Assembly (NCBI GenBank): GCA_964474695.1
Contig: CAYYTK010000017.1
Coordinates: forward strand, 25,572-89,571
Origin: an uncultured Anaerolineales bacterium
GTDB lineage: Bacteria; Chloroflexota; Anaerolineae; CG2-30-64-16
Reading direction: 5' to 3'
Length of the DNA stretch: 64,000 bases
Shown: piece after piece, positions 42,433-60,281 of the stretch
Layout of the letters: each line of letters begins with the position of its first letter
Position numbering within the stretch: position 1 is the first letter of the stretch
Program-made: the position numbers and the translations under genes
Notes under the pieces: model-generated
Told to the model about the DNA's origin: nothing
The model's input: only the letters and a program-made list of their open reading frames with translations
The model's database searches: none

Positions 42433-42453
42433 GTCGCACAAAGGAATAGCTTC

Positions 42454-42546
42454 ATGAATGATCTATTGCTGTCTATTGTTCCCGCCGTGATCGTAGGTGT
42501 GATGAGATCCCTTACTTCTTTCAAAAGTGAATTCGCTTCAACCTGA
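42454..42546 (+). CDS. 30-aa hydrophobic micro-ORF (MNDLLLSIVPAVIVGVMRSLTSFKSEFAST)
   Basis: Hand-translated from the 143-nt gap between the RM gene and the SAP-motif gene. AAGGA lies 8 nt upstream. It has one TM-like segment. Support is weak. Confidence 0.25.
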   Translation: MNDLLLSIVPAVIVGVMRSLTSFKSEFAST

Positions 42547-42575
42547 TTACAAGGCATGTTAGCGGGAAGGGAACA

Positions 42576-43379: not shown

Positions 43380-43492
43380 CGCCAGTAAGGCAGGTCGGGC
43401 GCCGTGGCTTCTATAGCTTTTTTCCCAGATCGAGGCAGACGATCACGCAGTTACGGATACTCTTGCGAACCAAACAGCCAGAGAGGCTTGCC

Positions 43493-44779: not shown

Positions 44780-47550
44780 CTTTGCCAGATGCGGCCCGCA
44801 ACGTCTATACCGATGCACCCCAAATCCATTCCAACTGGATCCTCGGCAGCCTCCAATTGTTCTTTTGGCTCTTCGTACACCCATCAGCCTGGCGTCACCA
44901 TGTGGCCCGTATTGACCCCAATCTCCGTCCCGATTTCGCACTAACCGAATTGAGCAGAGATCACTGGCGCAACCCGGTCCTGCGTCGACTGCTGATCACA
45001 GGGCACCTGGTTTGGCCTCTCGTGACCGGTATTGTGGTCGGCCTTGCTCTATGGGCATCAGGTCGGTCAGATGAAAACGTGGCCTTCGGATTGGCGTTCG
45101 GAATGGTGTTCAGCATAGTGTTCGGTCTGGCAGTCAGCCTGGCAGGCAGCGTGGCGGGCGGCGCAGCAGGCGGCGTGGCGGGTGGTTTCGCGTTCGGCAT
45201 GGCGCTCCCCTTAATGGGCGGCGTGGCATACGGCGTGGTAGGCGGCGTGGCGGGCGGTGTGGCGGGTGGCATCATTGGCACCATCGCGGGACGGGCATCA
45301 ATATCTTCCAACACCAGGTTGTTGAGCAGTATCGTGTTCGGGATCGGGGTGGGGGGCGCTGCGCTCGTTACGGTAGCCTACACGCCGTTCTCTATCCCTA
45401 AGTTCGATACAGGAAGCTTAGCGGGTAGCATGGCAGATTACACATCAGTCGTTATGAAGTATGCCATAGTAGTGGCTTTTGCGGGCTGGTTACACACGCA
45501 CAAGTGGAAAGCAACCGTGACGGGCGGGCTGGTATTCGGCGTGACGGTTGGCGTGGCAAGCGGCGTCGCATACAATATAATGGGTCACGCGACGAGCGGT
45601 GTCACGTATAACGTGATGGGTGGCGAGGATATCGGCATGACAGTGGCAGCGTTGTCAGCAACGCTCTTCTTGTCTGCCTTCGCGGCCGCCGAACGAGTTG
45701 GAGGAACCTGGTCTGGAGCAATAGCGGGCGCATTGACAATCGGTGGTGCCTGGACACTGGCCACCGTTCGAGAGACCGGAGTCGGCAGTCCAGCCTGGAT
45801 TGTACTCGGTGGTTTGATGGGTATTAGCCTGGGCTTGATGCAGGCCCGTTGGCGCCCTCCGTTGTTCTATCCCCTGACAGCCGCGTGGAACACGCTACTC
45901 TATCAGACTGACCAACGACGCTGTGCCAGCCATCCCGGTCTACTGCGTTGGCACTCGGCCTTCTGGGACGAGCACCAGCGCCTGCGCCTGGCCGGATTGG
46001 ACGAGCACCTCGTTATGGTAGCGGAGCACGATCCCGCGGAAGCAGCTATTGCCATGGAATACTTGACGACCAGCCACCAACGCTGGGCCGCCCAGGCTGC
46101 ACAGATCGAGCTCGATGCGCGGCACCTGCAAAGCTGCAGACAAGTGGAAGCCATCGGACTGGCCTACCGCCGTTTGGCAGCCGGCGAACTGGAGGGCCCG
46201 GCCAGCGCGCTACTGCGCAGTTTCGGCCGCATCAGCCAGGATGCTAATGCAGCCCTGCGGCAGGAAAGCAACTACAACCAGCGCCTCGCGCTACGGGCCA
46301 TCGAGTCCGATCTGGATGGCCTGCTGCGGGATCTGACCCGCAGCAGTGACCGCTACGCCGTGCGCTTCACACCCATCGCGACGCAGTGGCGAGACGTAGT
46401 CGCCTGCCACGCTAAGAAGTTGGCCGAAGCGGCCGAACTGCGCCAGGGAATAGATTCGCCCTATGTGATCGGTGTGCCGCTTACCGATCAGCAGGAGATC
46501 TTCGTGGGACGCACCGATATCGGCCGCCGCATCGAACAGCTCCTGCTGGACCAGCGTCGACCTCCCCAGATCCTTTACGGGCAGCGGCGCACCGGCAAGA
46601 CTTCGCTGCTCAACAATCTTGGGCGCCTGCTGCCCAGCACAGTGATCCCTCTCTTTGTGGATTTGCAGGGGCCGGCAACCCAGACCAGCGACCACGCCGG
46701 CTTTCTCTTCAACCTTGCCCGTAGCATGACCGACTCGGCGCAACGGCAACGCAGCCTCGAGCTGCCGCCCCTGGATCGCGACAGCCTCACGGCGGACCCT
46801 TTCACCCGCTTCGACGAGTGGCTGAATGAGGTCGAAACGGCGTTGGGATCGAAGACCGCATTGCTCTCTCTGGATGAGTTCGAGGCATTGGATCGGGCGT
46901 TGACGCAGGGGCGTTTCAGCGACGCGGACGTGCTTGGCATGCTCCGCAATTTGATGCAGCACCGGCCCCACTTCAAGGTATTGCTGGCCGGCTCTCACAC
47001 CCTAGAAGAGCTGGAGCGTTGGGCCGGCTACCTCATTAACGTGCAGGTGGTGCACATCTCGTACCTGAAAGTGGACGAGGCGCGCAAGCTCATCGAGCAA
47101 CCGGTCGCGGACTTCGCCCTGCGCTACGAGCCGGACGCCAGCCAGCGCGTACTGGATCTCACCCGCTGTCATCCCTTCCTGGTGCAACTGCTTTGCGGGG
47201 AGATCGTGGCCTTGAAGAATGAGCAGGAGGTCGCCCTACGCCGGCTGGCGCGCTTATCCGATGTGGAAGCGGCCGCCCACGAAGCCTTGAGTCATGGCAG
47301 CTTCTTCTTCGCTGACATCGAGCGCAACCAAGTGGATGCGGACGGCCTCGCTATCTTGCGCGCCCTGGCCACACGAGGTGAAGGGGTAGCGATAAGTCGC
47401 CAACAACTGGCTAGCCAGCTCACCAATCCCGCGCTGAATGAGCGCAGCTTGGCATCACTCATTCAGCGCGAGTTGATTGAGCCGACCGATGAGGGATATC
47501 GCTTTCAGGTGGAGCTAATCCGGCGATGGTTTGCCAATCGGAGTAGTTGA
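44776..47550 (+). CDS. polytopic glycine-zipper membrane domain fused to the same type of AAA ATPase
   Basis: The start overlaps the previous stop (ATGA at 44776-44779). The N-terminal ~370 aa carries many TM segments rich in GGVAGG/GxxxG. The C-terminus has FVGRTDIGRRIE, ILYGQRRTGKTSLLNNL and LLSLDEFEAL. Confidence 0.75.
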   Translation: MTLPDAARNVYTDAPQIHSNWILGSLQLFFWLFVHPSAWRHHVARIDPNLRPDFALTELSRDHWRNPVLRRLLITGHLVWPLVTGIVVGLALWASGRSDENVAFGLAFGMVFSIVFGLAVSLAGSVAGGAAGGVAGGFAFGMALPLMGGVAYGVVGGVAGGVAGGIIGTIAGRASISSNTRLLSSIVFGIGVGGAALVTVAYTPFSIPKFDTGSLAGSMADYTSVVMKYAIVVAFAGWLHTHKWKATVTGGLVFGVTVGVASGVAYNIMGHATSGVTYNVMGGEDIGMTVAALSATLFLSAFAAAERVGGTWSGAIAGALTIGGAWTLATVRETGVGSPAWIVLGGLMGISLGLMQARWRPPLFYPLTAAWNTLLYQTDQRRCASHPGLLRWHSAFWDEHQRLRLAGLDEHLVMVAEHDPAEAAIAMEYLTTSHQRWAAQAAQIELDARHLQSCRQVEAIGLAYRRLAAGELEGPASALLRSFGRISQDANAALRQESNYNQRLALRAIESDLDGLLRDLTRSSDRYAVRFTPIATQWRDVVACHAKKLAEAAELRQGIDSPYVIGVPLTDQQEIFVGRTDIGRRIEQLLLDQRRPPQILYGQRRTGKTSLLNNLGRLLPSTVIPLFVDLQGPATQTSDHAGFLFNLARSMTDSAQRQRSLELPPLDRDSLTADPFTRFDEWLNEVETALGSKTALLSLDEFEALDRALTQGRFSDADVLGMLRNLMQHRPHFKVLLAGSHTLEELERWAGYLINVQVVHISYLKVDEARKLIEQPVADFALRYEPDASQRVLDLTRCHPFLVQLLCGEIVALKNEQEVALRRLARLSDVEAAAHEALSHGSFFFADIERNQVDADGLAILRALATRGEGVAISRQQLASQLTNPALNERSLASLIQRELIEPTDEGYRFQVELIRRWFANRSS

Positions 47551-50500
47551 GTGGAACAGCAGTACACTCACGATCTATTCATCTCTTGTGCCAATGCCGA
47601 TTTGGCATGGGTCGAGGGCTTTCTCCTGCCCGCGTTAAGCTTGCCAGCGGAACGCGTAATCACCTTCAGGCAATTCGTGCCCGGCGCGAGCTTGATCGCG
47701 GAGTTCGAACGCGCGGTTCGCGACAGCCGTTACACGATCCTCGTGCTCACCCCCGCGTACCTCGCCGATGTGTGGCCGCAGTTTGCTGCGGAACTCGCCA
47801 GCTTCACAAGTGTTGCTGAACGGCAGAACCGAATCATCCCGCTCTTGCGCGAGCCTTGTGAATTACCCCTGCACATTGATTTCCGCGTGGGCTTGGATTG
47901 TACAGCGGCAGCCAACTGGGAGAGCGAAATCGGACGCGCACGCGAACTGCTTGACCAACCCGAACCAAAGGCTGAACGAATCCCCTGCCCTTACCCGGGG
48001 CTGGCGCCGTTCAACGAACATGAGGCAGAACGCTTCTTTGGCCGAGAGGATGAAATCGCCGATCTGCGGCGCCGGCTGCGCTACCACAACTTCCAACTTA
48101 TCATGGGCCCGTCAGGCTCTGGAAAGTCATCTTTGGTCTTCGCTGGCCTGGTGTCAGACCTTCGAAAACACCAGCCTGGTCAGTGGACAGCGCGGGACAT
48201 CCGACCAGGCTCAACGCCCCTCGATGCATTGAACACCGCGGTCGGTGACCTGATCAACCTGGACACGCTTCAACCATCTGGATTGCAGACACCACGCTTC
48301 CTACTGATTGTAGATCAACTCGAGGAGATCTTCGTTCAGGTTGCACGGCCTGTGCAGAGTGATTTCATCGCTGCGCTGAAGATACTCCTACAAGTTCCCA
48401 ACTGCTCTATCGTCGCCACACTGCGAGCTGACTTTTACTCTGATTTGATGGACAGCGACCTCTGGCCGATTGATCCATCCCACAGACTGGAGGTGGTTCC
48501 GCTGCGAGGCGACGCGCTGCGACGAGCCATCCAGCAACCTGCAACAGATGCCGGTGTGTACCTGGAAAGCAGCCTATTGGAGCGTTTGTTAGCTGACGTT
48601 GCTGACGAGCCCGGTTCGCTGCCTCTGCTGCAGGAAACACTGGTGCTGCTCTGGGAAGGCATGGAGCGCCGTTTCTTATCACTTGCATCCTATGCAAAAA
48701 TGGGGGATGGCAAGCGCAGCGGGCTTGCCGTCTCTATGGCCACAAAAGCCGACTCAGTACTCGGCGCGCTGTCAGCCGAACAGCGCACCATCGCCCGGCG
48801 GATTATCATCAGGCTTGTCCAGTTCGGCGTGGGACGTCCGGACACACGACGCCAGCAATTTGTCAGCGATTTGATGAGCGCCGGTGACGATGAAGAGGCG
48901 TTCAGGAACGTGCTGGAGCATCTGGTCCGGAATCGTCTGCTAACATCGAACAGTGCTGAAGAGGCCAGGGACAGGGAGGTAGATATTGCTCATGATGCGC
49001 CGATCTGGGGCTGGCCCGGACAGCAAGCATGGATGAATAAACGGCGAGACGCTGAGCTGCACCGAAGAAGATTAGAGGAACGAGCAGAAGCCTGGGAGGT
49101 CCAACGCGCTGCGCTGCTTGACTCTGTGGAGCTTGCTAACGCACGCCGCTGGTCCGAGGATTACGCTGATGAGTTGGGTTGTAGTGCGACGCTCTTGGCA
49201 ATGATAGCGACCAGCGACAAGGTCAACCGCAGGAATGCCCGGCTTCGGCTTGCGGTCGCAACTGCGATTGTTATGCTTGTCATCGGCATATTGGCAACAA
49301 TTGCGGTTACCCAGTATCAACTGAACGATCAGCAGCGCAGCGCCGCGGCCACGGCGCAAGTGCTCGCCAATGCTGAGTCACACGCTCGAACCACGGCAGA
49401 AGCCGAGGCCCATGCCCGCGCGACCGAAGTTGCCATCAGGAGCGCAGCAGAGGCTGATGCGAAGATTCGAGCACAGGAAGCCCTGGCACGGCAACTGCTG
49501 GCTCAGGCCGAATCCCTCTACGCACGCGAACCGGGGCAGTATGATTTGGCGCTGTTGCTCGGCGTTGAGTCCATGAAACGGCTGAACTCGCCTGAAGGAA
49601 GTGATTTCCTCTATCGCGGCCTGAGCCTGTTGCCGAAGGCTACACAGACCATCACTCACAATTCCGAGGTCAAGAACAGGTTACTTAGCCCGAACGGGAT
49701 GTGGCTTGCCACCAGTAAACAGGATAATACCGTAGAGATCGTCAGCGTGGAAAATAGTAAGATTGTGGCAGCGATAACACCGGACACTCCTCCCAGTTCC
49801 ATGACTTTCAGCCCAAATGGTCGCTGGCTTGCAACGCTCGGCAACCCAATGCAAGTCTGGGATGTCATCACAGCCGAGGAACAGATACGTAGTAGTTTCC
49901 ACGTCAACTGGGATCGTATGGCCTTTGACCCTACCGGTCAGTTTCTTGCAGTGTCAGAGGATGCCCAAACCAGGGTCTATGACCTCACAGCCGGCGAACT
50001 GAGTACCGAGGTGTCGAGCGCCAAAGATGTGAGGGTCCTTGCGTTTAGTCAGACCGGCCGTATGCTTGCCGCGGCAACCGACAACGGTACATACATCTGG
50101 GATGCTGCAACTGGCGCCTCTCTCGTAACCCTACCTACACCTGAAAGAACTTATCGAATCATCTTTGACCCACTCGACGAACTGCTGATCACCGCGGAAG
50201 ACAACGGCACCATTTCCTTTTGGAACATAGACTCGGGTACGGTGCTGACTCGCACTAGACAACTTGAAAGCATCAATGACCTGGTACTCAGCCCTGACGG
50301 TCAATGGCTTGCAGCCGGAAGCTATGGTGGAATGCTCGCAGCTTGGGCGTTACCAGAAGGCGCAGCGAGCATTCATGTGCCGGATAGGCCAACCCTAATT
50401 GCTATGCCAGATCCAAATTTATGGACGAATATGCTCTCCTACTACTACTCTGGGTTTGAAGTAGTCTCCTTTAACCAGAACGGCACTATGCTGGCCACAA

Positions 50501-51828
50501 TCGGTGATGATGGCGTCACGCGCGTTTGGGACACGATGACCATGCGGGAGATCGCAAGAATTACTGATGATAGCGCCATTGACGGGGTAGCCTTCGCGCC
50601 CAATGGGATCCTGTTGATAACCACCAGTCCATTCCATACCAGAAGCTGGGACATCGGACTCAAGGTTGGCCCATCCATGATCTCAAAGAAAGAAGGCTAT
50701 TTTGAGGTAACTCTACGATCTGACGGGGAGCAGTTGGCCGCCACCATTGATCAACAAGTTCGCCTGTGGTCCACACGTTCATGGGGGAACCCAAGCGTGC
50801 TATCGGAAAGCAGAAACATTGAGGCAGTTGCCTTTGACCCCGCCTCCAACAAAATAGCGGTAGCAACAGCTACAGGACTACATATCTGGGATACTGCGGC
50901 CCAAACGATCACAGCCATAATCCCCAACAGCGCGAACATCAGTCAACTTGAATTCAGCCCGGATGGTAAATGGTTAACCGGCACTCAAGATAGGACGATT
51001 CGCGTCTGGGATGCGGAACATTGGAGTCCAGCAATTCAAAACGCATGCCCGGAGCCGAATGAGTGTTGGTTTGGGACTTTCAGTCCTGATGGTCGCTGGA
51101 TGGCGGTCAGGCTTCCCGAGGATCGCATTGCTCGTCTAAGCACTGCTTCATGGCAAGTTGTGTCTTCAGTCATCGCAAAAGGTCACATCACCGGCCTCTC
51201 GTTCACTCCCTCCGGGAATGAACTGATCGCCACGGCTCTGGGTTTCGCTAGTGAGAAGGACACCACTTCTCGAGATGGCACGCTTTCGTTGCATGTATGG
51301 AAGGGAATGAACGGCGACCATATGATCCTCGATAGAACCATCGAGTACACCGTCGGGCCAGAGGGCTTTATAGAATCACAGTTCAGCCCAAATGGCCGAT
51401 GGCTGGCGCTCATTCAGGAATCCACCGTGAGAATCCTAGATCTGACCACCATGAAAGAAGTAAACACTGTCTCTCACAAAAGCGGGAGGATCTATGGACT
51501 TGCCTTCAGCCCTGATGATGAACTCATTGCAACTGCGGGAACAGACCAGATAGTGCGCGTTTGGAAGGTGAGCACCGGCCACGAAGAAGCCAGATTCTCG
51601 CTTGATGGCATGGCATGGCTGGTGGGGTTCAGTGCCGATAACCATTCGCTTCTGATCAACAATTCAACCGCTGATTGGAGCTCGGGGCGCTTGCAAGCGC
51701 ACTATTGGCGCGGCGCTGATCTGATGCGAGAGACCTGCAGCCGCCTCTGGCGAAATCTAGCTCTCGAGGAGTGGTCAACTTACTTTGCCAGTGAGCCATA
51801 TCGACGAACCTGCGATAATTTGCCGTGA
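47551..51828 (+). CDS. TIR - STAND (nSTAND/NACHT-like GPSGSGKSS) - single TM - Ala/Glu-rich segment - degenerate beta-propeller protein
   Basis: The GTG start directly follows the previous TGA. TIR: HDLFISCANADLAWVEGFLLPAL, ILVLTPAYLADVWPQFAAELASF. Then CPYPGLAPFNEHEAERFFGREDEI, IMGPSGSGKSSLVFAGL and LLIVDQLEE. TM: RLRLAVATAIVMLVIGILATIAV. Next AESHARTTAEAEAHARATE, then WD40-like blades. C-terminus: TCSRLWRNLALEEWSTYFASEPYRRTC. Confidence 0.85.
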   Translation: MEQQYTHDLFISCANADLAWVEGFLLPALSLPAERVITFRQFVPGASLIAEFERAVRDSRYTILVLTPAYLADVWPQFAAELASFTSVAERQNRIIPLLREPCELPLHIDFRVGLDCTAAANWESEIGRARELLDQPEPKAERIPCPYPGLAPFNEHEAERFFGREDEIADLRRRLRYHNFQLIMGPSGSGKSSLVFAGLVSDLRKHQPGQWTARDIRPGSTPLDALNTAVGDLINLDTLQPSGLQTPRFLLIVDQLEEIFVQVARPVQSDFIAALKILLQVPNCSIVATLRADFYSDLMDSDLWPIDPSHRLEVVPLRGDALRRAIQQPATDAGVYLESSLLERLLADVADEPGSLPLLQETLVLLWEGMERRFLSLASYAKMGDGKRSGLAVSMATKADSVLGALSAEQRTIARRIIIRLVQFGVGRPDTRRQQFVSDLMSAGDDEEAFRNVLEHLVRNRLLTSNSAEEARDREVDIAHDAPIWGWPGQQAWMNKRRDAELHRRRLEERAEAWEVQRAALLDSVELANARRWSEDYADELGCSATLLAMIATSDKVNRRNARLRLAVATAIVMLVIGILATIAVTQYQLNDQQRSAAATAQVLANAESHARTTAEAEAHARATEVAIRSAAEADAKIRAQEALARQLLAQAESLYAREPGQYDLALLLGVESMKRLNSPEGSDFLYRGLSLLPKATQTITHNSEVKNRLLSPNGMWLATSKQDNTVEIVSVENSKIVAAITPDTPPSSMTFSPNGRWLATLGNPMQVWDVITAEEQIRSSFHVNWDRMAFDPTGQFLAVSEDAQTRVYDLTAGELSTEVSSAKDVRVLAFSQTGRMLAAATDNGTYIWDAATGASLVTLPTPERTYRIIFDPLDELLITAEDNGTISFWNIDSGTVLTRTRQLESINDLVLSPDGQWLAAGSYGGMLAAWALPEGAASIHVPDRPTLIAMPDPNLWTNMLSYYYSGFEVVSFNQNGTMLATIGDDGVTRVWDTMTMREIARITDDSAIDGVAFAPNGILLITTSPFHTRSWDIGLKVGPSMISKKEGYFEVTLRSDGEQLAATIDQQVRLWSTRSWGNPSVLSESRNIEAVAFDPASNKIAVATATGLHIWDTAAQTITAIIPNSANISQLEFSPDGKWLTGTQDRTIRVWDAEHWSPAIQNACPEPNECWFGTFSPDGRWMAVRLPEDRIARLSTASWQVVSSVIAKGHITGLSFTPSGNELIATALGFASEKDTTSRDGTLSLHVWKGMNGDHMILDRTIEYTVGPEGFIESQFSPNGRWLALIQESTVRILDLTTMKEVNTVSHKSGRIYGLAFSPDDELIATAGTDQIVRVWKVSTGHEEARFSLDGMAWLVGFSADNHSLLINNSTADWSSGRLQAHYWRGADLMRETCSRLWRNLALEEWSTYFASEPYRRTCDNLP

Positions 51829-51852
51829 TGGGCCTTCCCTGAGGACTGTGCT

Positions 51853-53157
51853 ATGTCTACCCTTGCAAACTACCACGCCTTAGTCGTCGGCATCGCTGCT
51901 TACCACCATTTGGGGCCACTCCCAGCAACCGTAGCCCAGGACGCCAAAGACACCTATGCCTTACTGGTTGCGCCTGATATCTGCGCCTACCCCGAGAAAA
52001 ACGTCAAGCTCATCCTGAACGACGAAGCAACCCTTGTTCGTCTGCAACAAGAACTAACCAAACTTGCAGAACGCTGCAGCGAAGACTCGACGATTCTTAT
52101 CTACTTTTCTGGCCATGGCGGCCGTATTTCTACCGGGCCGAACGCCGGCGAGTATCTCTTACCGGTGGACACGCGGTTGAGGCGGCGCGCAGACACCGAA
52201 GACGAAGTATACGAGCCAGCGCCAGAAACGACGCTCTCCGGTGCTGAGTTCACCGCCGCGCTACAGGCGATTCCGGCGCGCAAGGTCGTCGTGGTATTCG
52301 ATTGCTGCCACAGCGGAGGGATCGGACATGTCAAGGCCGGCATCGAGCCCGAGTTCAAGGCTGGCCTGCCGGAGAGCTACTACGACAAGTTGGCTGCCGG
52401 CCGCGGCCGCGTGATCCTGGCATCGTCACGCGAGACGGAGTCCTCCTGGGTGCTGCCCGGCGACGCCAACAGCCTGTTCACCAAGCACCTGAAGGCGGGC
52501 CTGGAGGGTGGCGCGCCGGGCAAGGATGGCCTAATCCGCATCTTCGAGCTGTTCGAGTACATTCACCCGAAAGTCACCGAAGCCCGTCCCGATCAGCATC
52601 CGGTGCTCCAGGTGAAGCTGGAAGAGAATTTCCCTATCGCCCTGTACCTCGGCGGCCAGAAGGCGCCGGCGCCCCCGCCTGAGCCGACCGCGGCAGACGA
52701 CTTCCGCTACGACGCCTACATCAGTTGGGTGCGCGCGCCGGCCGACACGGCCTGGATGCGGGACAAGCTGCTGCCGCTGCTCAAAAAGGCCGGGCTGCGA
52801 GTCGCCATGACCGGTCGCGTGGAGGAGCCGGGTGTGCCCGCTGTGGTCGGCATTCAGCGGGCTGTAGAACTGGCTAAACGCACAGTTGTTGTCCTTTCGC
52901 GTGCGTACCTCGAAAGTGGCTGGGCTGCGCTGGAGAGCATCGCCGCCCAGCATCTGAGCGTCGAAGAACGACGGGCCAGGCTGCTGCCGGTTGTGATTGA
53001 CGACTCACTGCTCGATTGGGAGCGACGCATGACCAGGGACGTACCCCTCGGTCTGCGCCAGCTTACGCCGCTTGACGTGGTAGACGGGTTCTTCGGCGAG
53101 GAGAATCTAACTCGTCTACCTGAGATTCTGAAGCAGCCCATTCCTGCAACGCGCTGA
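51853..53157 (+). CDS. caspase-like peptidase (C14 family) fused to a C-terminal TIR domain
   Basis: YHALVVGIAAYHH, catalytic His in ILIYFSGHGG, catalytic Cys in VVVVFDCCHSGG. C-terminal TIR: YDAYISWVRAPADTAWMRDKLLPLLKKAGLRVAM, VVVLSRAYLESGWAALESI, LLPVVIDD. Confidence 0.85.
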   Translation: MSTLANYHALVVGIAAYHHLGPLPATVAQDAKDTYALLVAPDICAYPEKNVKLILNDEATLVRLQQELTKLAERCSEDSTILIYFSGHGGRISTGPNAGEYLLPVDTRLRRRADTEDEVYEPAPETTLSGAEFTAALQAIPARKVVVVFDCCHSGGIGHVKAGIEPEFKAGLPESYYDKLAAGRGRVILASSRETESSWVLPGDANSLFTKHLKAGLEGGAPGKDGLIRIFELFEYIHPKVTEARPDQHPVLQVKLEENFPIALYLGGQKAPAPPPEPTAADDFRYDAYISWVRAPADTAWMRDKLLPLLKKAGLRVAMTGRVEEPGVPAVVGIQRAVELAKRTVVVLSRAYLESGWAALESIAAQHLSVEERRARLLPVVIDDSLLDWERRMTRDVPLGLRQLTPLDVVDGFFGEENLTRLPEILKQPIPATR

Positions 53158-53161
53158 TCCA

Positions 53162-56100
53162 ATGAATCAACTACCTGGTCACATCCACGATCTTTTCATA
53201 TCCTATGCTCGGGCTGACCTGGGCTGGGTATACGGTTACCTACTGCCAGCTCTCGGCCTGCCACCCGATCGCGTTGTAACCGCACAGGATTTTGCGCACG
53301 GCGTCTCAGTTGTATCTGAGTTCGAGCGGGCCGTTCAAGACAGCCGCTTTACAGTGTTGGTATATAGCCCTGCATTCCCTGCCAATGAATGGACTGACTT
53401 CAGCGAACAGTTGGCCTCTCATCTGAGCGTAGAGGAGCAACGCGAACGGGTCGTGCTGCTCCTCCTGCAACCTTGTGAAGTGCCCCTCAGACTGAAGCCG
53501 CGCCTCCACTTAGATTGCACCGAACCAGCAGACTGGGAGCAGCAGGTGGCCCAGCTGCGCCAGATGTTGACGCTCCCAGAGCCCAATCCCGAGGATATCC
53601 CGTGTCCCTATCCGGGCATGGCGCCATTTCGCCAAGAGGACGCTCAGCGCTTCTTTGGGCGAGAGGATGAGATTCAGGAGTTACGCCAGCGCCTGGATGA
53701 GCAGTCGTTGATACTGGTCATGGGCCCATCCGGGTCCGGCAAATCCTCACTGTTATCCGCGGGATTGATCCCCGCGCTCGACGAACGCTGGACTTGCATC
53801 ACGCTGCGGCCGGGGCCCAAACCGATTGACACACTGCAATCAACCATTGCTGAGGTCGAAGGTACTGACGAGCCTGTCGCTGATGGAATCGCGCCTCCAA
53901 AGCAGCCAGGCAAACGCGTTCTCTTGGTGGTGGATCAACTGGAGGAGTTGTTTGTTCAGGCGACCAAGGAGGACCAGGTAGCCTTCATCGACACCATCAG
54001 CAGGCTGCACCAACGCCGGGGCTGGGCGGTGATCCTTGCCCTGCGCGCTGACTTCTTCGACGATCTCATGAACAGCAAGCTGTGGCCGATAGCGCAGCCG
54101 CATCGGATGGAACTCACCCCGCTGCGTGGACAGGCCCTCCAGGTAGCCATTCAACGACCGGCGAATGATCTGAAGGTTCACCTGGAAGCCGGCCTCGTCG
54201 AGAGACTCATCGCCGATGCCGCCGATGAACCCGGCGCGCTCCCATTGCTGCAACAAACGATGGTATTACTGTGGGAAAAACGCCAGCGCCGCCTGCTGCC
54301 GCTGAACGCCTACCGGGCCATGGGCGACGGGCAGCGAAGCGGCTTGGCCACTGCGGTCACTACCAAGGCCGATGAAGCCCTCGCTCGGCTAACACCCGAA
54401 GACCAGGTGGTCGCGCAGCGCATCCTTGTGCGGCTGGTGCAGTTCGGCGAAGGCCGACCCGATACCCGACGGCAACAAGCCATCCCCGCGATCCTCGACG
54501 CAGATGGCGATCGTGATCGGGTACTGCGCGTGGTCCAGCACCTGGCCCAGTATCGCCTGTTGACCTTGGGCGAAAAAAACGGGGAACAACAAACAGTTGA
54601 CATCGCGCATGACGTGCTGATCACGAGCTGGCCGGCCTTCGGCGATTGGCTGAAACAGTGGCGCGCCGCCGAGCTGACGCGCCGCCGGCTGCAAACGAAG
54701 GCGGAAGAGTGGGATCGCTGGGTAGCATCAAAACAACCGAACGCCGGCTTGCTAGATGCAGCGGAACTCGCTGAGGCGGAGCAGTGGCTTGGCAGCGACG
54801 AGGCTTCAACTCTGGGGAGTAGCCGGACGCTGCAAACGCTGGTCAGTGTGAGCCGAGCCGCTATCAAGAAGAGTGCGCGCATCCGTGTCGGCGTGATCGG
54901 TGCCCTGATCACACTGCTCATCGCCGTGTTGGCCGCCATCACCATTGGGCAATCCCAGCTTGCAACCCAGCGCGGCCAGGCGGCTGCCACCGCGGAGAGC
55001 CTGGCGCAAGCCGAATCCTACGCGCGCGGCACTGCCGAACGCGAGGCCATAATCCGTACGACGGCGGAAGCGAATGCCCGGCGCTCTGCGCAGGCCGAAG
55101 CCACCGCGGCCGCAGACGCCAAACAGAAGCAGATGGAGGCCGAACGCGAGGTCGTCATCCGCACCACGGCAGAGGCGAATGCCCGGCGCTCTGCGCAGGC
55201 CGAAGCAACTGCAGCAGCTAATGCAAAACTAAAACAGGCTGAAGCCGAAGCTCAATCTCGTCGTGCTCTGGCCGAAAACCTAGCCGGGCAGAGCCAACTG
55301 CTCATTCGCGTGGACAACAGCCCGGGGGATCTTGCGCTAATTCTCGCCCGCGACGCCGCATTGACAGATGGTAGCGTCAACACCGACCAGGCACTACGCT
55401 TTGCTCTCGAAAGCACTCATCGGCAATGGTCTATCCGATCTACAAGCTATCGCCACGAAGGGGCGGTGTACTCGGTGGCCTTTGATCCCTTTGGCGAGAT
55501 GGTTGTCTCATGTGGGGCCGACGGAACCATTCGCTTCTGGCGCGGAGCTGCGCTCAAACCGTTGCCCTATTTATTTGGTCATGCGGGAGGCGTAAGGTCA
55601 GTGGCCTTCTCCCCGGACGGCAAACTCATCGTCTCGGGCGGCGAAGATGGTACGGTACGACTGTGGGATGTCCTCAAAGGCGAGCAACTCGCCCAACTCG
55701 ACGGTCATGGAGGGATCGTAAACTCGGTGGCCTTCAGCCCGGATGGCGAACGCATCATCTCGGGCGGCGAAGATGGCACAGTGCGGCTGTGGGATGCCAC
55801 CAGTGGCAAGCAATTGATTCTGATTAGCAGTCAGGAGAATATGGTATATTCGGTGGCCTTCAGCCCAGATGGCAAACGCATCGCCTGGAACAGCTACGAT
55901 GGAGTGCAATTGTCGGATGCCACCAGTGGCGAACAATTGGCTGAACTCGGCAGTCTTGCCGAGTGGATGAATTCGGTGGCCTTCAGCCCGGATGGCAAGC
56001 ACATCGTCTCAAACGGTAACGATGGAATGGAATTGTCGGATGCTACCAGTGGAGAACGATTGGTCCAAATCGGCCAACATGAGTTCAGCGTGCCTTCGCT

Positions 56101-58816
56101 GGCTTTTAGTCCGGATGGCAGACGCATCGTTTCGGGGAGTGACACTGTACGATTGTGGGATTCCACCACCGGTGAGCAACTAGCCCAACTCGATGGTCAT
56201 GCGGGGAGCGTCAATTCGGTGGCCTTCTCCCCGAACGGAGAGCGTATTGTTTCGGGCGGTCAAGATGGCACGGTGCGGCTGTGGGATGCAGTAACTGGCG
56301 AGCAACTAGTTCAACCCGATGGTCATGTGGGGAGCGTCAACTCGGTGGCCTTCTCCCCAGATGGCAATCGCATCGTCTCAGGTAGTGGTCACGTCGTCGG
56401 TAGTTCAGATAACACGGTGAGGCTGTGGGATGCAGCTAGTGGCGAACAACTGGTCCAACTCGCCGGCCATGAAGAGAGCGTGACTTCAGTGGCCTTCTCC
56501 CCGGACGGCATACGCATCGTCTCGGGCAGTCTAGACAACACAGTGCGGCTGTGGGATTCCGCCAGTGGCAAGCAATTGCTCCGACTCGACGGGCATTCAG
56601 ACTGGGTACATTCGGTGGCCTTCTCCCCGAACGGCAAGCGCATCGTCTCGGGCGGCGGAGATGGCACGGTGCGGCTGTGGGATTCCACCACTGGCGAGCA
56701 ACTCGCCCAACTCGACGGCCATGTGGGGAGCGCAAGATCGGTGACCTTCAGCCCTAACGGCGAACGCATCGTCTCGGGCGGCGACACAGTGCGACTATGG
56801 GATGCCACCACTGGCGAACAGCTAACCCTACTTGAGGGTCATGAGGCGGGAGTAGCCTCGGTGGCCTTCAGCCCGGATAGCAAACGTATCGTCTCGGGTA
56901 GTTGGGATGGCACAGTGCGGCTATGGGACTCCATCAATAGCAGGCAGTTGATCCAACTCGACACTCAGGGGGGGACCGTATGGTCAGTGGACTTCAGCCC
57001 AGATGGCAGATATATCGTCTCGGGCAGTGACGACGGAGCGGTGCGGCTGTGGGATGCCACCAGTGGCCAGCAATTGGCCAAAATCACCGGGCATGCGGAG
57101 AGCGTCAATTCGGTGGCCTTCAGCCCTAACGGCGAACGCATCGTCTCGGGCGGTGACACAGTGCGCCTGTGGGATGCCATCAGTAACGACGAACTGGTCC
57201 GACTCGACGGCCATATAGGGAGCGCCAAGTCGGTGGTTTTCAGCCCGGATGGCGAACGCATTGTGTCGGGTGGTGACACGGTGCGGCTATGGGATGCCAC
57301 TAGTGGCAAGCAACTCGTCCAACTCGACGGTCATGGAGGGATCGTAAACTCGGTGGCCTTCAGCCCGGACGGCGAACGCATCATCTCGGGCGGCGAAGAT
57401 GGCACAGCGCGGCTGTGGGATGTCACCAGTGGCAAGCAATTGATCCAACTCAGCGCTCAGATGGGTTGGGTATCTGTGGTGGCTTTCTCCCCGGATGGAA
57501 GACGTATCATCTCAGGCGGCCATGATGGCAAGGTGCAGTTGTGGGATGCCACCACTGGCGAACAACTCGCCCCACTTGCCGGTCATGTGGCGAGCGTAAA
57601 GATAGCGGTCTTTTCGCCGGATGGTGAACGCATCGCCTCGGCTGGTGGCAATGACACCGGCATTGTTGCCAACTCAGTGGTGCTTTGGAATACAACGACT
57701 GGCGAACGACTGGTCCAACTCGACAGTCGTGCAGGGAGAGTATACTCGCTCGCCTTCAGCCCAAATGGCGAACGCATTGTCTCTGGCGGCGGAGATGGCA
57801 CGGTGCGGTTGTGGGATGCCGTAACTGGCGAGCAGATGGCCCAACTCGATGGTCATACAGGGAGCGTATACTCAGTAGCCTTCAGCCCGAACGGCGAACG
57901 CATCATCTCGGGAGGCGAAGATGGCACAGTGCGGCTGTGGGATACTACTAGTGGCGAACAGCTAGCCCAACTCAACGGTCATACCGGCAGGGTTTGGACA
58001 GTGACTTTCTCCCCAGATGGTGAACGCATCGTCTCGGGCGGTGAAGACGGGGTGCGGCTGTGGGATGGGACACAACGAATCCTGCTCAGGGCAATTGCAC
58101 GTATTTCGCGACCCGCACCGATTTTGACTAGCGCAGAACGTAAGCGCTTTGGCATTGGCAGAGAGGTTAAATTGCCCGACCAGGAGATGCTAAGGCCTTT
58201 GCTGGTCCGCGCCCAGGCGCTGCGGCTGGTCGAGCAAGGACGTGAACTGGCGCGCACAGGCGCCGTAGCCGAAGCTGTCGTTCATTTCTACCAGGCGTTT
58301 GCCCTCGATCCTATGCTGGCTATCGAACCCAAAACACTCGCGCAACGGGTCTTGCGTAACCAGGTACGTTCACTGCTGTTCACCGGCCACAATCAGGCTC
58401 GACGAGGAGATATGACCGGTGCCATCACCAGATTCGAGGAAGCCACGATTCTGGATCCCAGCCTAACCACTAACCCTGATGCGGCTCAAGACTGGAACGG
58501 CCTTTGCCAGGCCGGCGTACTCTGGAACCAAGCGCCCCTCGTGCTGGATGCCTGCGATACAGCAGTCAGACTGGCCCCCAATGATCGCAACACTCGTGAC
58601 AGCCGTGGCGTAGCACGGGCGTTAGCGGGAAATATTCAGGGGGCCGTCGAGGATTTCGAGCTTGCTTTGGAGCAAGCGAAAGCAAAGGGAGAGTCTGATG
58701 GCTTTATTGCCTCGCGCTCAGCTTGGGTTAAAGCGTTGCAGGAAGGTCTAGACCCAGCGAGCATCTTTGATGAGGCGACGCTTGAGAAGCTAAGGAACGA
58801 GGATTCGGATTGGTAA
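53162..58816 (+). CDS. TIR - STAND (GPSGSGKSS) - single TM - Ala/Glu-rich repeat - ~21 x WD40 - TPR protein
   Basis: TIR: HDLFISYARADLGWVYGYLLPAL, VLVYSPAFPANEWTDFSEQLAS. Then CPYPGMAPFRQEDAQRFFGREDEI, VMGPSGSGKSSLLSAGL and LLVVDQLEE. TM: ARIRVGVIGALITLLIAVLAAITIG. About 21 blades of the type GHxGSVNSVAFSPDGERIVSGGEDGTVRLWD. The C-terminus has TPR-like helices. Confidence 0.9.
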   Translation: MNQLPGHIHDLFISYARADLGWVYGYLLPALGLPPDRVVTAQDFAHGVSVVSEFERAVQDSRFTVLVYSPAFPANEWTDFSEQLASHLSVEEQRERVVLLLLQPCEVPLRLKPRLHLDCTEPADWEQQVAQLRQMLTLPEPNPEDIPCPYPGMAPFRQEDAQRFFGREDEIQELRQRLDEQSLILVMGPSGSGKSSLLSAGLIPALDERWTCITLRPGPKPIDTLQSTIAEVEGTDEPVADGIAPPKQPGKRVLLVVDQLEELFVQATKEDQVAFIDTISRLHQRRGWAVILALRADFFDDLMNSKLWPIAQPHRMELTPLRGQALQVAIQRPANDLKVHLEAGLVERLIADAADEPGALPLLQQTMVLLWEKRQRRLLPLNAYRAMGDGQRSGLATAVTTKADEALARLTPEDQVVAQRILVRLVQFGEGRPDTRRQQAIPAILDADGDRDRVLRVVQHLAQYRLLTLGEKNGEQQTVDIAHDVLITSWPAFGDWLKQWRAAELTRRRLQTKAEEWDRWVASKQPNAGLLDAAELAEAEQWLGSDEASTLGSSRTLQTLVSVSRAAIKKSARIRVGVIGALITLLIAVLAAITIGQSQLATQRGQAAATAESLAQAESYARGTAEREAIIRTTAEANARRSAQAEATAAADAKQKQMEAEREVVIRTTAEANARRSAQAEATAAANAKLKQAEAEAQSRRALAENLAGQSQLLIRVDNSPGDLALILARDAALTDGSVNTDQALRFALESTHRQWSIRSTSYRHEGAVYSVAFDPFGEMVVSCGADGTIRFWRGAALKPLPYLFGHAGGVRSVAFSPDGKLIVSGGEDGTVRLWDVLKGEQLAQLDGHGGIVNSVAFSPDGERIISGGEDGTVRLWDATSGKQLILISSQENMVYSVAFSPDGKRIAWNSYDGVQLSDATSGEQLAELGSLAEWMNSVAFSPDGKHIVSNGNDGMELSDATSGERLVQIGQHEFSVPSLAFSPDGRRIVSGSDTVRLWDSTTGEQLAQLDGHAGSVNSVAFSPNGERIVSGGQDGTVRLWDAVTGEQLVQPDGHVGSVNSVAFSPDGNRIVSGSGHVVGSSDNTVRLWDAASGEQLVQLAGHEESVTSVAFSPDGIRIVSGSLDNTVRLWDSASGKQLLRLDGHSDWVHSVAFSPNGKRIVSGGGDGTVRLWDSTTGEQLAQLDGHVGSARSVTFSPNGERIVSGGDTVRLWDATTGEQLTLLEGHEAGVASVAFSPDSKRIVSGSWDGTVRLWDSINSRQLIQLDTQGGTVWSVDFSPDGRYIVSGSDDGAVRLWDATSGQQLAKITGHAESVNSVAFSPNGERIVSGGDTVRLWDAISNDELVRLDGHIGSAKSVVFSPDGERIVSGGDTVRLWDATSGKQLVQLDGHGGIVNSVAFSPDGERIISGGEDGTARLWDVTSGKQLIQLSAQMGWVSVVAFSPDGRRIISGGHDGKVQLWDATTGEQLAPLAGHVASVKIAVFSPDGERIASAGGNDTGIVANSVVLWNTTTGERLVQLDSRAGRVYSLAFSPNGERIVSGGGDGTVRLWDAVTGEQMAQLDGHTGSVYSVAFSPNGERIISGGEDGTVRLWDTTSGEQLAQLNGHTGRVWTVTFSPDGERIVSGGEDGVRLWDGTQRILLRAIARISRPAPILTSAERKRFGIGREVKLPDQEMLRPLLVRAQALRLVEQGRELARTGAVAEAVVHFYQAFALDPMLAIEPKTLAQRVLRNQVRSLLFTGHNQARRGDMTGAITRFEEATILDPSLTTNPDAAQDWNGLCQAGVLWNQAPLVLDACDTAVRLAPNDRNTRDSRGVARALAGNIQGAVEDFELALEQAKAKGESDGFIASRSAWVKALQEGLDPASIFDEATLEKLRNEDSDW
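55034..55243 (+). repeat. 2 x 105-nt in-frame tandem repeat (AEREAIIRTTAEANARRSAQAEATAAADAKQKQME / AEREVVIRTTAEANARRSAQAEATAAANAKLKQAE)
   Basis: Read from the DNA. A 32-nt identical core lies at 55070-55101 and 55175-55206. Confidence 0.85.
55449..58065 (+). repeat. coding tandem array of ~21 WD40 blades (126-nt and shortened 120-nt units) with near-identical distant copies
   Basis: Periodic SVAFSP(D/N)GERIVSGG units. 55693-55818 and 57319-57444 differ at only 3 of 126 nt (hand alignment). Confidence 0.9.
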
Positions 58817-58937
58817 AGCGTCACGTCTATGAGGGGTAAATACTGTTCCTGCACAGCATTGAGCATGCTATGAAACGGTTCAGTAAAGGCATCTGTTAAT
58901 GACTCCCGGCATCTCCAAAGCAAGTAGTTAGCATTCA

Positions 58938-60242
58938 GTGGTCCACCTAAGGAGCTATCCCTTGGCCAAAAACACAAGAATTATCTTCGCAGTGATCGCC
59001 TCCAGTATCCTGGCGCTTGCGGTTGGACTGCTGGCAAACATCGCGGCCGGCTACTTGGCGCCACAATTCGCCGAGCGGCCGTGGATCGTGTGGTTAGCGT
59101 TAGGAGTTACGTTTCTCCTCTCCTTGCCGCTGTCCGTCTACCTGTTCCTACGTGGCTCAGGAGATCCAGCCCACAAAGATGCTGGCGACCGCCAGGGACC
59201 AACCGTAGATACCACACCGCTTCCGCCCCGCCCTTACCTGCAATTTTTCGGTCGAGAGCCCATCATCGAAGAGGTTCTGGGGGCGCTGCGCGACCCCAGC
59301 GGCAAATGGGCTGTCGGCATCGATGGGATGGGAGGCATCGGAAAGACCTCGCTTGCCCGTGTGGTCGTAGATCGCAGTCTGGAAGAGAAGTTATTCGAAG
59401 TCGTAATCTGGGAGCCGCGTCCAGCGGGCATCTCCTTCGGTACGACCGCGCCGCTGAGTTGGCCCGATATCTTCGCCGCCATCGGACGACAGCTCGGGGC
59501 TCCTGATCTGCAAGGTTTGCCGGAATCAGAGCGGATTCCAAGACTTGGTACGCTGTTGAACCAACATAAAGCACTGCTTGTCCTAGACAACCTGGAGAGC
59601 GCGATACATAGCCAGGATGAGGTGGTGACCAGACTTCTGCCGTTGCTACAGCACAGCAAAGCGATACTCACCAGTCGCCGACGGTTCAAGGGCGATCTCT
59701 ACGCCGTACATCTCAAGGGCCTCAACGATGAAAGCGCCATGCTGTTGATCCGCTCCGAGGCGCAGCAAAAGGGAATCCAACGGGTAGCAGAGGCAGAGAG
59801 TGGCGAACTGCTCCTTGTCACGCATGCTACGGGCGGCTCGCCTCTGGCAATCAAGCTGACTGTAGGTCAGCTACAACACCTCCCACTGGAGCAAGTGTTG
59901 CGCTCACTAGCGGAAGTCGGAGGGGAGCCGACCGGCGATGCAGATGACGAGTACGTTAGGTTCTATAAGGGCATTTTCTGGAACTCCTGGAACCTGTTGT
60001 CGGAGGACGCCCAGCGGCTGTTGATCGCGATGGCTGTGTTTGCGCCGGGAATCGGTGGCACCTTCGATGCCATCCAGAGTACCAGCGGGATTGACCAGAG
60101 CCTACTGACGCGCAAGATCGATGAATTATGGCGTCTCTCCTTCCTTGAAGTTGGTCAGTCAACCCTGCAGAACACTCGATACTATCTGCACCCGCTGACG
60201 CAGTATTTCGTGGTGTCCGACATCGTCAACTCGCCAAAGTAG
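58938..60242 (+). CDS. membrane-anchored NB-ARC (STAND) ATPase, terminated by an in-frame amber codon
   Basis: Two N-terminal hydrophobic helices: IIFAVIASSILALAVGLLANIAAG and WIVWLALGVTFLLSLPLSVYLFL. Then FFGREPIIEEV, P-loop GIDGMGGIGKTSLARVV, Walker B LLVLDNLES, and GGSPLAIKL. A likelier start is TTG at 58962, with AAGGAG 7 nt upstream. Confidence 0.8.
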   Translation: MVHLRSYPLAKNTRIIFAVIASSILALAVGLLANIAAGYLAPQFAERPWIVWLALGVTFLLSLPLSVYLFLRGSGDPAHKDAGDRQGPTVDTTPLPPRPYLQFFGREPIIEEVLGALRDPSGKWAVGIDGMGGIGKTSLARVVVDRSLEEKLFEVVIWEPRPAGISFGTTAPLSWPDIFAAIGRQLGAPDLQGLPESERIPRLGTLLNQHKALLVLDNLESAIHSQDEVVTRLLPLLQHSKAILTSRRRFKGDLYAVHLKGLNDESAMLLIRSEAQQKGIQRVAEAESGELLLVTHATGGSPLAIKLTVGQLQHLPLEQVLRSLAEVGGEPTGDADDEYVRFYKGIFWNSWNLLSEDAQRLLIAMAVFAPGIGGTFDAIQSTSGIDQSLLTRKIDELWRLSFLEVGQSTLQNTRYYLHPLTQYFVVSDIVNSPK

Positions 60243-60281
60243 GCACCTCTATCCGGTGTTGCGACAGCGGAGTGTGAAGAA

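Follow-up and report, generated by a model that had tools for sequence, protein, structure and literature searches.

A caspase-TIR protein between two TIR-STAND sensors: candidate effector half of a TIR-bridged bacterial STAND system

Introduction

TIR domains act either as NAD-cleaving enzymes, as they do in bacteria, in plants and in SARM1, or as pure scaffolds, as in animal TLR and MyD88. The present analysis concerns a 64-kb stretch of DNA from an uncultured Anaerolineales bacterium (the whole stretch of 64,000 nucleotides being referred to as the window) and, within it, a gene whose product of 434 amino acids (aa) joins an N-terminal caspase domain to a C-terminal TIR domain. This caspase-TIR protein, designated P0001, is encoded between two large sensors, each made up of a TIR domain, a STAND nucleoside triphosphatase (NTPase) domain and an array of WD40 repeats. 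The reading that best fits the comparisons described below is that of a STAND system split in two and bridged by TIR domains, in which the caspase-TIR would be the effector part. The family to which the protein belongs offers a widespread and compact bacterial case for asking how and when the scaffold role of TIR domains arose.

Results

Gene and domains of the caspase-TIR protein

The caspase-TIR gene is preceded by a GAGGA Shine-Dalgarno sequence 8 nt upstream of its ATG and is separated by 24 nt from the upstream sensor gene and by 4 nt from the downstream one, all three genes being on the same strand (Table 1). The upstream and downstream sensors score 53.5 and 55.4 bits with Pfam TIR_2 and 306.8 and 330 bits with nSTAND1, respectively, and they are paralogues, 34% identical over ~1,500 alignment columns and much closer in their TIR-NTPase part, as had been supposed in the original prediction, which was made from the letters of the window alone and placed the effector between two paralogous TIR-STAND sensors.

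Within the 434 aa the first domain matches PF00656 (Peptidase_C14, aa 8-260) with an E-value of 7.5e-15 and 55.7 bits against a gathering cut-off of 21.4, and the second matches both PF13676 (TIR_2, aa 291-410; E 5.6e-13, 49.9 bits against a cut-off of 28) and PF01582 (TIR, aa 286-382; E 1.7e-09, 38.1 bits against a cut-off of 21.3). The same Pfam scan of the protein found no domain beyond C14 and TIR, neither an NTPase nor a sensor. The His/Cys dyad characteristic of the C14 family is represented by H88, within YFSGHGG (84-90), and by C152, within FDCCHSGG (149-156); the TIR domain carries the motifs YDAYISW (286-292), YLESGWAALES (352-362, which contains E361) and LLPVVIDD (377-384). The profile hidden Markov models and the motifs thus bear out what had been proposed for the protein itself, i.e. 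an intact dyad, a complete TIR domain downstream of it, and the absence of a sensor or NTPase domain of its own; the dyad and the TIR Glu align with catalytic positions. PADLOC returned only its generic 'caspase' model and the candidate PDC-S66 for the TIRs, with no match to a named system.

An AlphaFold2 model built with 32 homologues consists of two well-folded domains (mean predicted local distance difference test score, pLDDT, 76.5; predicted template modelling score, pTM, 0.72), the core of the caspase domain being mostly at pLDDT 80-97 and residues 166-181, 238-270 and 277-281 falling below 50. K161 and K169, both conserved, sit in the loop joining the p20-like to the p10-like part (aa 158-181), which is predicted to be disordered from residue 166 onwards; the interdomain linker, likewise predicted to be disordered, varies in length across the family alignment, with K270 of GGQK nearly invariant. 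Foldseek assigns the first domain to the caspase-hemoglobinase fold, with matches to 3bij (GSU0716, a bacterial caspase homologue; E 7e-10), to the paracaspase MALT1 and to the fungal, trypanosome and plant metacaspases Yca1, TbMCA2 and AtMC4; the second domain matches the TIR of MyD88 with a target TM-score of 0.78. By sequence, the nearest solved TIRs are those of TLR15/2, TLR1, TLR6 and TLR10 (E 5e-8 to 6e-3), and when the domain is aligned with TLRs, P326-G327 fall on the Pro-Gly of the BB loop and E361 on the Glu in 'WCxYE', the alpha-C motif, a position taken here to be where NAD-cleaving TIRs have their catalytic Glu (spacing as in WxxxE). As judged from these alignments, the effector TIR resembles animal TIRs, down to the BB-loop Pro-Gly, and its closest solved relatives (TLR, MyD88) are scaffolds.

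Table 1. Coordinates of the features discussed, in positions of the window.
Feature	Part	Coordinates	Strand	Basis or remarks
Caspase-TIR gene (P0001)	434 aa; ATG start, no internal stops	51853..53157	+	Pfam C14 and TIR_2
Peptidase_C14 domain	aa 8-260	51874..52632	+	Pfam
Caspase dyad codon	H88	52114-52116	+	Motifs and family alignment
Caspase dyad codon	C152	52306-52308	+	Motifs and family alignment
Flexible interdomain linker, Pro/Ala-rich	aa 261-284	52633..52704	+	Low pLDDT and alignment
TIR domain	aa 285-410	52705..53082	+	Pfam TIR_2 and TIR
BB loop	P326-G327	52828-52833	+	Alignment to TLR TIRs
Catalytic-position Glu	E361	52933-52935	+	Alignment to TLR TIRs
Upstream sensor	1425 aa; TIR_2, nSTAND1, WD40	47551..51828	+	Pfam
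Upstream sensor, TIR	aa 10-124	47578-47922	+	Pfam
Upstream sensor, nSTAND1	aa 147-518	47989-49104	+	Pfam
Upstream sensor, transmembrane helix	aa 568-586	49252-49308	+	Hydrophobicity; followed by Ala/Glu-rich stalk and WD40 array
Downstream sensor	1884 aa; TIR_2, nSTAND1, long WD40 array	53162..58816	+	Pfam
Downstream sensor, TIR	aa 12-132	53195-53557	+	Pfam
Downstream sensor, nSTAND1	aa 149-519	53606-54718	+	Pfam
Downstream sensor, transmembrane helix	aa 577-595	54890-54946	+	Hydrophobicity; followed by stalk and propellers
TIR-AAA ATPase	canonical WADLE Glu	43367-44779	+	Pfam, Glu motif
Membrane AAA ATPase	polytopic	44719-47550	+	Pfam, transmembrane segments
DUF1156	methylase-like	2754-5681
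DUF499	ATPase-like	7078-9915
Stand-alone TIR gene		9991-10698
TIR-WD40 paralogue 1	one transmembrane segment	11032-15132
TIR-WD40 paralogue 2	one transmembrane segment	15254-19093
RyR protein 1	TrkA_N...RyR	19244-21613
RyR protein 2	RelA_SpoT-SLOG(LSDAT_prok)-RyR	21674-24241
NB-ARC protein and two TPR-rich reading frames		58938-63049

Conservation of the active sites

Conservation was assessed on an alignment of 200 family members, comprising 120 database proteins and 80 genomic loci. H88 and C152 are each present in all 200, as are D30 and the D150 of the DCCHSGG motif, and the lysines of the loop that follows the Cys are retained in 194 (K161) and 181 (K169) of them. The caspase domain is therefore very probably a working Cys protease, and since D30 is invariant at a position that we take to be the supplier of the S1 acid in metacaspases (the 'L-x-G-C-x-N-D' position), cleavage is probably directed to Arg or Lys; K161 and K169 are candidate autoprocessing sites.

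Conservation is less strict in the TIR domain. The BB-loop residues G327 and P326 are found in 199 and 168 members, respectively, and the position of E361 is occupied by Glu in 180 of the 200; the 20 Glu-less members include 14 with Gln, two with Ala and two with Asp, and Q, A, D and S all occur. The TIR Glu is thus under selection in most of the family, not in all of it. As regards the dual protease/NADase executioner that had been envisaged, the idea is plausible for this protein, which keeps the Glu together with 90% of its relatives, and does not extend readily to the 10% in which that residue is replaced.

Distribution of the caspase-TIR architecture

With a word-indexed search, significant matches were obtained to 1,084 proteins. 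The top 120 are all 405-574 aa long and contain both domains; their main sources are Chloroflexota (Anaerolineae, Caldilineaceae) and cyanobacteria, and those that have a name are called only 'caspase family protein'. An exhaustive search against representatives at 50% identity yielded 509 clusters at E <= 1e-30, with both domains covered by ~60-70 of the best 150 cluster representatives, and two peptide patterns run against 185,579 GTDB genomes retrieved 136 species, with matches also in Actinomycetota, KSB1, deltaproteobacteria, Thermodesulfovibrionales, Isosphaeraceae, Pyrinomonadaceae, Halobeggiatoa and a Calothrix plasmid. A one-off or chance fusion is ruled out by these numbers (>1,000 full-length homologues and the 509 clusters), and the caspase-TIRs emerge from the searches as a large, functionally uncharacterised family of more than 1,000 members.

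The nearest homologues, at 73% identity, belong to metagenome-assembled genomes of Anaerolineales. The caspase-TIR is found in 13 of 200 sampled genomes of its own class and in none of five of its own family, and one copy is present in the source genome (4.76 Mb, 86.7% complete). This sampling depicts a patchy, accessory distribution, such as is typical of defence genes.

Conserved pairing with TIR-bearing partners

In order to survey the genomic context, open reading frames (ORFs) were called at 80 loci from different species and searched with the domains of the window, partners being sought within 10 kb of the caspase-TIR. A TIR-nSTAND1 gene lies within this range at 47 of the 80 loci, at 30 of them within 600 bp and nearly always on the same strand. 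The chance of finding such a neighbour within 10 kb is ~2%, as calculated from the background of four TIR-nSTAND1 genes in the 4.76 Mb of the source genome. At a further 18 loci the partner is of another kind that likewise begins with a TIR domain, e.g. TIR-NB-ARC-TPR (L001), TIR-TPR (L058, L080), TIR-FGE-sulfatase (L017, L019) and TIR-BNR/Sortilin, which brings partners with an N-terminal TIR to 65 of 80. Across the surveyed loci the N-terminal TIR is the sole constant feature of the partner, the NTPase and the sensor being interchangeable.

Clusters with several sensors, like that of the window, recur at L050, L035, L041, L009 and L061, and a four-gene cluster consisting of a TIR-BNR/Sortilin protein, a protein of 1,100 aa, a LysM protein and a caspase-TIR recurs at about ten loci. 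The latter layout was noted at L003 (3975-11257) and also at L005, L006, L007, L014, L043, L045, L060, L067 and L071; its TIR-BNR/Sortilin protein is ~555 aa long with a Glu-bearing TIR, the ~1,100-aa protein has a weak M36 metallopeptidase match, and in the caspase-TIR of L003 the TIR Glu is replaced by Gln.

The source genome contains four TIR-nSTAND1 sensors for its one caspase-TIR, two of the sensors (on contigs C14 and C18) having no caspase-TIR next to them; the fourth sensor, on C18 (L082, 2248-8350, minus strand), is Glu-less and adjoins a 439-aa EAD7-domain protein. In Mantel tests, the distances among caspase-TIRs track those among the adjacent STAND partners (r 0.27-0.67, p <= 0.005).

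Glu asymmetry between the TIRs and topology of the sensors

A MAFFT alignment of 153 TIR domains from the surveyed loci reveals a marked asymmetry in the canonical Glu, which is present in 74 of 81 caspase-TIRs, in none of the 48 partner TIRs linked to nSTAND1 and in 16 of the 24 TIRs of other partners. The nSTAND1-linked partners carry G, S, A, T, V or I in its place, Ala being found in the upstream and Ser in the downstream sensor of the window, and when the TIR of the upstream sensor was aligned independently with TLR1, TLR2 and TLR6 by HMMER, Ala again stood opposite the TLR Glu. All 47 nSTAND1-type partners of Glu-keeping caspase-TIRs lack the canonical Glu, and of the four caspase-TIRs that have a partner but no Glu, three stand beside a Glu-bearing partner. 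In the source genome all four TIR-nSTAND1 proteins, including the two on C14 and C18, are Glu-less; elsewhere in the window the Glu is kept in the TIR-AAA protein and in two TIR-WD40 proteins with a transmembrane (TM) segment. Because the canonical catalytic Glu is absent, the sensor TIR most likely works in a non-enzymatic way, as a scaffold or adaptor.

Both flanking sensors have, after the NTPase, a single 19-residue segment with a Kyte-Doolittle value of 2.7 (2.71 in the upstream sensor, where RRNARLR lies on its N side). One such TM-like helix, placed after the NTPase and ahead of the sensor part, occurs in 34 of 44 partner sensors (among L002-L079), and when the flanks were compared in 36 helix-bearing proteins, Lys and Arg were richer on the N side in 32 and on the C side in one. 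By the positive-inside rule, this enrichment predicts an N-in, C-out topology with the TIR and NTPase in the cytoplasm and the WD40 array outside, i.e. a receptor-like sensor, the prediction being drawn from hydrophobicity only.

Direct fusions of the caspase to sensors

Caspase domains 43-59% identical to that of P0001 form the N-terminus of many longer proteins. Ten of these were scanned, and they include caspase-nSTAND1-FGE-sulfatase, caspase-NB-ARC-TPR, caspase-NB-ARC-WD40, caspase-nSTAND3, caspase-TCAD9 (one with a bacterial Death-like domain) and caspase-calcineurin-like phosphoesterase architectures. One and the same caspase subfamily is hence found either wired directly onto a STAND sensor or provided with a TIR beside a TIR-bearing sensor. 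A TIR pair that stands in for the covalent link would give rise to just this pattern, which amounts to a Rosetta-stone argument. The source genome also has a 3,049-aa ORF (G000:C31:14926-20496, minus strand) with a caspase domain 33% identical to that of P0001 and a weak nSTAND1 match; its neighbour is an nSTAND1 protein of 770 aa, and the ORF may represent a relative in which caspase and STAND are joined directly.

The gene island around the system

The window as a whole has the gene content of a conflict island. Besides the genes described so far, it holds DUF1156 and DUF499 genes, several TIR-TM-WD40 genes, a HerA cassette, a serine recombinase and an Eco57I-type restriction-modification enzyme (coordinates of the genes taken up here are given in Table 1). 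The DUF1156 and DUF499 genes, at the left of the island, are a known candidate restriction-like defence pair, and a stand-alone TIR gene follows. The two large TIR-TM-WD40 paralogues next to it have an N-terminal TIR with a canonical WVNRE Glu, one TM segment (~aa 186-233) and WD40 repeats, with no NTPase, and they look like direct TIR-receptor fusions. Two RyR-domain proteins adjoin these TIR genes; phage RyR-domain proteins are reported to degrade immune signals based on ADPR (2026 preprint, PMC13232231), and by analogy the host proteins may handle TIR products. Beyond the downstream sensor lies the gene of an NB-ARC protein, which has two TM-like helices at its N-terminus; two TPR-rich ORFs come next on the same strand, and the arrangement resembles a split STAND sensor.

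The genes for the TIR-AAA and membrane AAA ATPases that precede the upstream sensor may be co-transcribed with the sensor and effector genes; a scan of 42300-60400 for promoter and terminator consensus sequences gave counts within shuffle expectation and is uninformative on the operon. The TIR-AAA, membrane AAA, NB-ARC and TPR neighbours were rejected as core components, no homologues of them, TIR apart, being found at the 80 other loci.

Discussion

On the basis of our comparisons, we consider it somewhat likelier than otherwise that the Glu-less sensor TIR nucleates the recruitment and clustering of the caspase-TIR through TIR-TIR contacts. In such a scheme, the WD40 array, predicted to lie outside the cytoplasmic membrane, would detect a ligand, upon which the NTPase would oligomerise and bring the sensor TIRs into a cluster; the clustered TIRs would then recruit the caspase-TIR via heterotypic TIR-TIR contacts, and the ensuing clustering would activate the Arg/Lys-type caspase by induced proximity, with autoprocessing probably at a conserved Lys in the loop at aa 158-181. 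Once assembled, the effector TIR might in addition hydrolyse NAD+ by means of E361, and the outcome would be cell death or growth arrest of an abortive-infection or kin-protective type. We infer the TIR-TIR contact, the proximity activation, the NADase activity, the substrates and the trigger from the comparative data. Recruitment by the flanking sensors had been put forward in the original prediction, and the N-terminal TIR of a partner at 65 of 80 loci, the caspase-STAND fusions and the 48 of 48 Glu-less nSTAND1 partners support that part of it, short of proof. Also in favour of the scheme are the intact domains with their invariant caspase residues, the four Glu-less sensors for one caspase-TIR in the source genome, the animal-like TIR, the correlated distances of effectors and STAND partners, and the published precedents of EAD coupling and of active/inactive TIR pairs.

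Several observations weigh against this scheme. At 15 of the 80 loci there is no TIR partner within 10 kb, and while five of these are on short contigs, about ten have long flanks in which the scanned neighbours are mostly housekeeping genes. The TIRs of the caspase-TIRs form a clade of their own, distant from the partner TIRs: they match those of other caspase-TIRs at 1e-20 to 1e-80 and the TIR of their own neighbour only at 1e-5 to 1e-19, whereas the coupling domains of published EAD pairs (described below) are usually each other's closest relatives. The Mantel signal is confounded by shared phylogeny and cassette transfer, and since the correlation is stronger between the caspase and NTPase domains than between the two TIRs, it speaks for co-inheritance and not for a specific interface. 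An Asp or Glu is found one residue past the canonical position in 33 of the 48 nSTAND1-linked TIRs, which could thus still be catalytic in a shifted register. Finally, because model confidence in the linkers is low, the putative autoprocessing sites are guesses.

The same data could be read in terms of autoproteolytic release, whereby the caspase would be a maturation module, similar to that proposed for EACC1 systems, that cuts the linker (e.g., after K270) and frees the TIR NADase as the actual effector. The low-confidence Pro/Ala linker after the nearly invariant GGQK, and E361 itself, kept in 90% of the family, agree with this account, as does the occurrence of the same caspase subfamily ahead of other enzymatic modules, such as the calcineurin-like phosphoesterase of P0130; yet in many relatives (P0175, P0133, P0254) the caspase is the sole effector on a STAND sensor and can therefore be a terminal effector, and the 10% of members without the TIR Glu still keep a perfect caspase dyad. 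The closest family model of the caspase is NCBIfam NF047832 ('caspase, EACC1-associated type'), for which the release of C-terminal effectors has been proposed (PMC7159879), but the domain scores 107.9 bits where 140 are required, and an EACC1 gene is absent. Release alone, moreover, leaves the pairing with TIR-starting partners unexplained; we judge it unlikely, while acknowledging that it can coexist with TIR-mediated recruitment. A TIR product, N7-cADPR, activates a bacterial caspase-like protease in type IV Thoeris (bioRxiv 10.1101/2024.10.24.620036), and by the same logic a TIR-made, NAD-derived nucleotide might activate the present caspase allosterically, the TIR-TIR contact with the sensor not being the activating step. 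P0001 keeps the catalytic-position Glu and several Glu-bearing TIR proteins are encoded in the window; the signal could stem from the TIR of the caspase-TIR or from the TIR-AAA protein at 43367. On the other hand, the TIRs of the nSTAND1 partners are Glu-less without exception, and the sensor is thus not an obvious signal generator; apart from C14 and TIR, P0001 has no domain that would bind a ligand, nor is a TIR-AAA gene a conserved companion of caspase-TIRs at other loci. Glu-less caspase-TIR variants exist, and in type IV Thoeris a short, free-standing TIR protein is encoded separately from the caspase, not as one fusion beside STAND sensors. A nucleotide-activated mechanism is, in our estimation, quite improbable.

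As to biological purpose, the concentration of the family in filamentous or multicellular lineages (Anaerolineae, Caldilineaceae, Nostocales, Oscillatoriales, Actinomycetota, Beggiatoa), the predicted N-in, C-out topology and the roughly ten loci set among housekeeping genes would be in keeping with a non-immune role, i.e. a developmental or kin-recognition signalling and cell-death module whose extracytoplasmic WD40 array senses neighbouring cells or the state of the envelope. In the window, however, the genes are packed among restriction-modification, DUF1156/DUF499, HerA, TIR and STAND genes and a serine recombinase, which form a dense island, and the patchy distribution described above (13 of 200 in the class, none of five in the family) is typical of defence genes, so that we hold a non-immune role to be very improbable; it would in any case concern purpose and not mechanism, and is compatible with recruitment of the caspase-TIR by the sensor TIRs.

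A more far-reaching proposal, which we regard as possible if doubtful, is that of a bacterial Toll-like pathway in which single-pass receptors, each with an extracytoplasmic WD40 array, a cytoplasmic STAND NTPase and a dead scaffold TIR, recruit one shared caspase-TIR hub. If it were true, scaffold-type TIR signalling to a caspase would exist in bacteria and would not be an animal invention. Whatever the reading, the pair is small enough for recruitment, NAD+ loss and cross-membrane sensing to be tested directly, which would link the logic of the apoptosome, of Toll and of Thoeris and provide a function for more than 1,000 proteins annotated only as 'caspase family protein'.

Comparison with known systems

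EAD-coupled STAND-caspase systems of multicellular bacteria have been described by Kaur, Burroughs, Iyer and Aravind (eLife 2020, PMC7159879; eLife 2021, PMC8195603), the second paper being the one in which nSTAND1 was named; both treat the TIR as an enzymatic effector, adaptors being small helical EAD or Death-like domains. The present genes share with those systems a caspase effector whose extra domain is found again as the N-terminal domain of a neighbouring STAND NTPase that has repeats as its sensor, as well as variable partner modules, direct caspase-STAND fusions and enrichment in filamentous or multicellular lineages. They differ in that the coupling domain is a TIR and that the catalytic Glu is on one TIR of the pair only. 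The coupling domain of EAD systems is a small non-enzymatic adaptor; on this point the present genes give a mixed picture, the Glu being found in 0 of 48 sensor-side TIRs and kept by the effector-side TIR.

A parallel for this asymmetry is provided by the TIR-ParA/FxsC-FxsT systems, described in October 2026 by the same group (bioRxiv 10.64898/2026.10.19.760177), where a gene for an active TIR goes with an inactive TIR on an NTPase-sensor protein, and where one sentence mentions both a rare caspase fused N-terminally to an active TIR and a TIR fused directly to a STAND module. The pairing of an active with an inactive TIR (74 of 81 against 0 of 48 with the Glu) is common to both, and single-TM, receptor-like sensor variants exist there too; here, however, the inactive TIR is N-terminal to the NTPase, and the caspase-TIR family, with its more than 1,000 members, is not a rare variant. 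Pfam finds neither ParA nor CbiA in the flanking sensors, only nSTAND1, and NCBIfam is blank for their N-terminal 583 and 596 aa, with no Fxs match. Given the size of the family and the related ideas in these three publications, the original prediction overstated its case in calling the combination of the two domains unusual. We found no paper that names the caspase-TIR family, the systematic pairing with Glu-less TIR-nSTAND1 proteins or the single-TM topology, the nearest mention being the sentence on rare caspase/TIR-FC fusions.

Type IV Thoeris (Rousset et al., bioRxiv 10.1101/2024.10.24.620036; Science 2025) also unites a TIR and a caspase-family protease in one bacterial module, and its protease, Arg-specific and promiscuous, is a plausible analogue of the output proposed here. 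It is encoded by two separate small genes without a STAND sensor, its TIR being the sensor that makes N7-cADPR; membership of the present genes was rejected, the domains being fused in one 434-aa protein with STAND proteins of 1425 and 1884 aa and Glu-less TIRs as neighbours. With the EACC1-caspase system (PMC7159879) the protein has in common an N-terminal caspase followed by a variable C-terminal module, and here too membership was rejected, both on the NF047832 score and on the gene upstream, which encodes a TIR-nSTAND1 sensor and not an EACC1 membrane protein.

In its logic, the proposed mechanism is reminiscent of the apoptosome (Apaf-1 CARD/procaspase-9 CARD) and of the TLR-MyD88 Myddosome, in both of which the sensor, be it a STAND or WD40 protein or a transmembrane repeat receptor, has a non-catalytic domain through which a partner with a domain of the same type is recruited and, once brought close, activated. 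A 2026 Nature survey of STAND proteins notes Apaf-1-like proteins of bacteria in which a caspase forms the N-terminus. The caspase-TIR system departs from these two assemblies in that its adaptor is a TIR and not a CARD, that the caspase is on the recruited protein itself and that the recruited TIR keeps a Glu of the catalytic type. Taken as a whole, it is a variant of kinds already known, namely the EAD-coupled STAND systems and the pairs of active and inactive TIRs.

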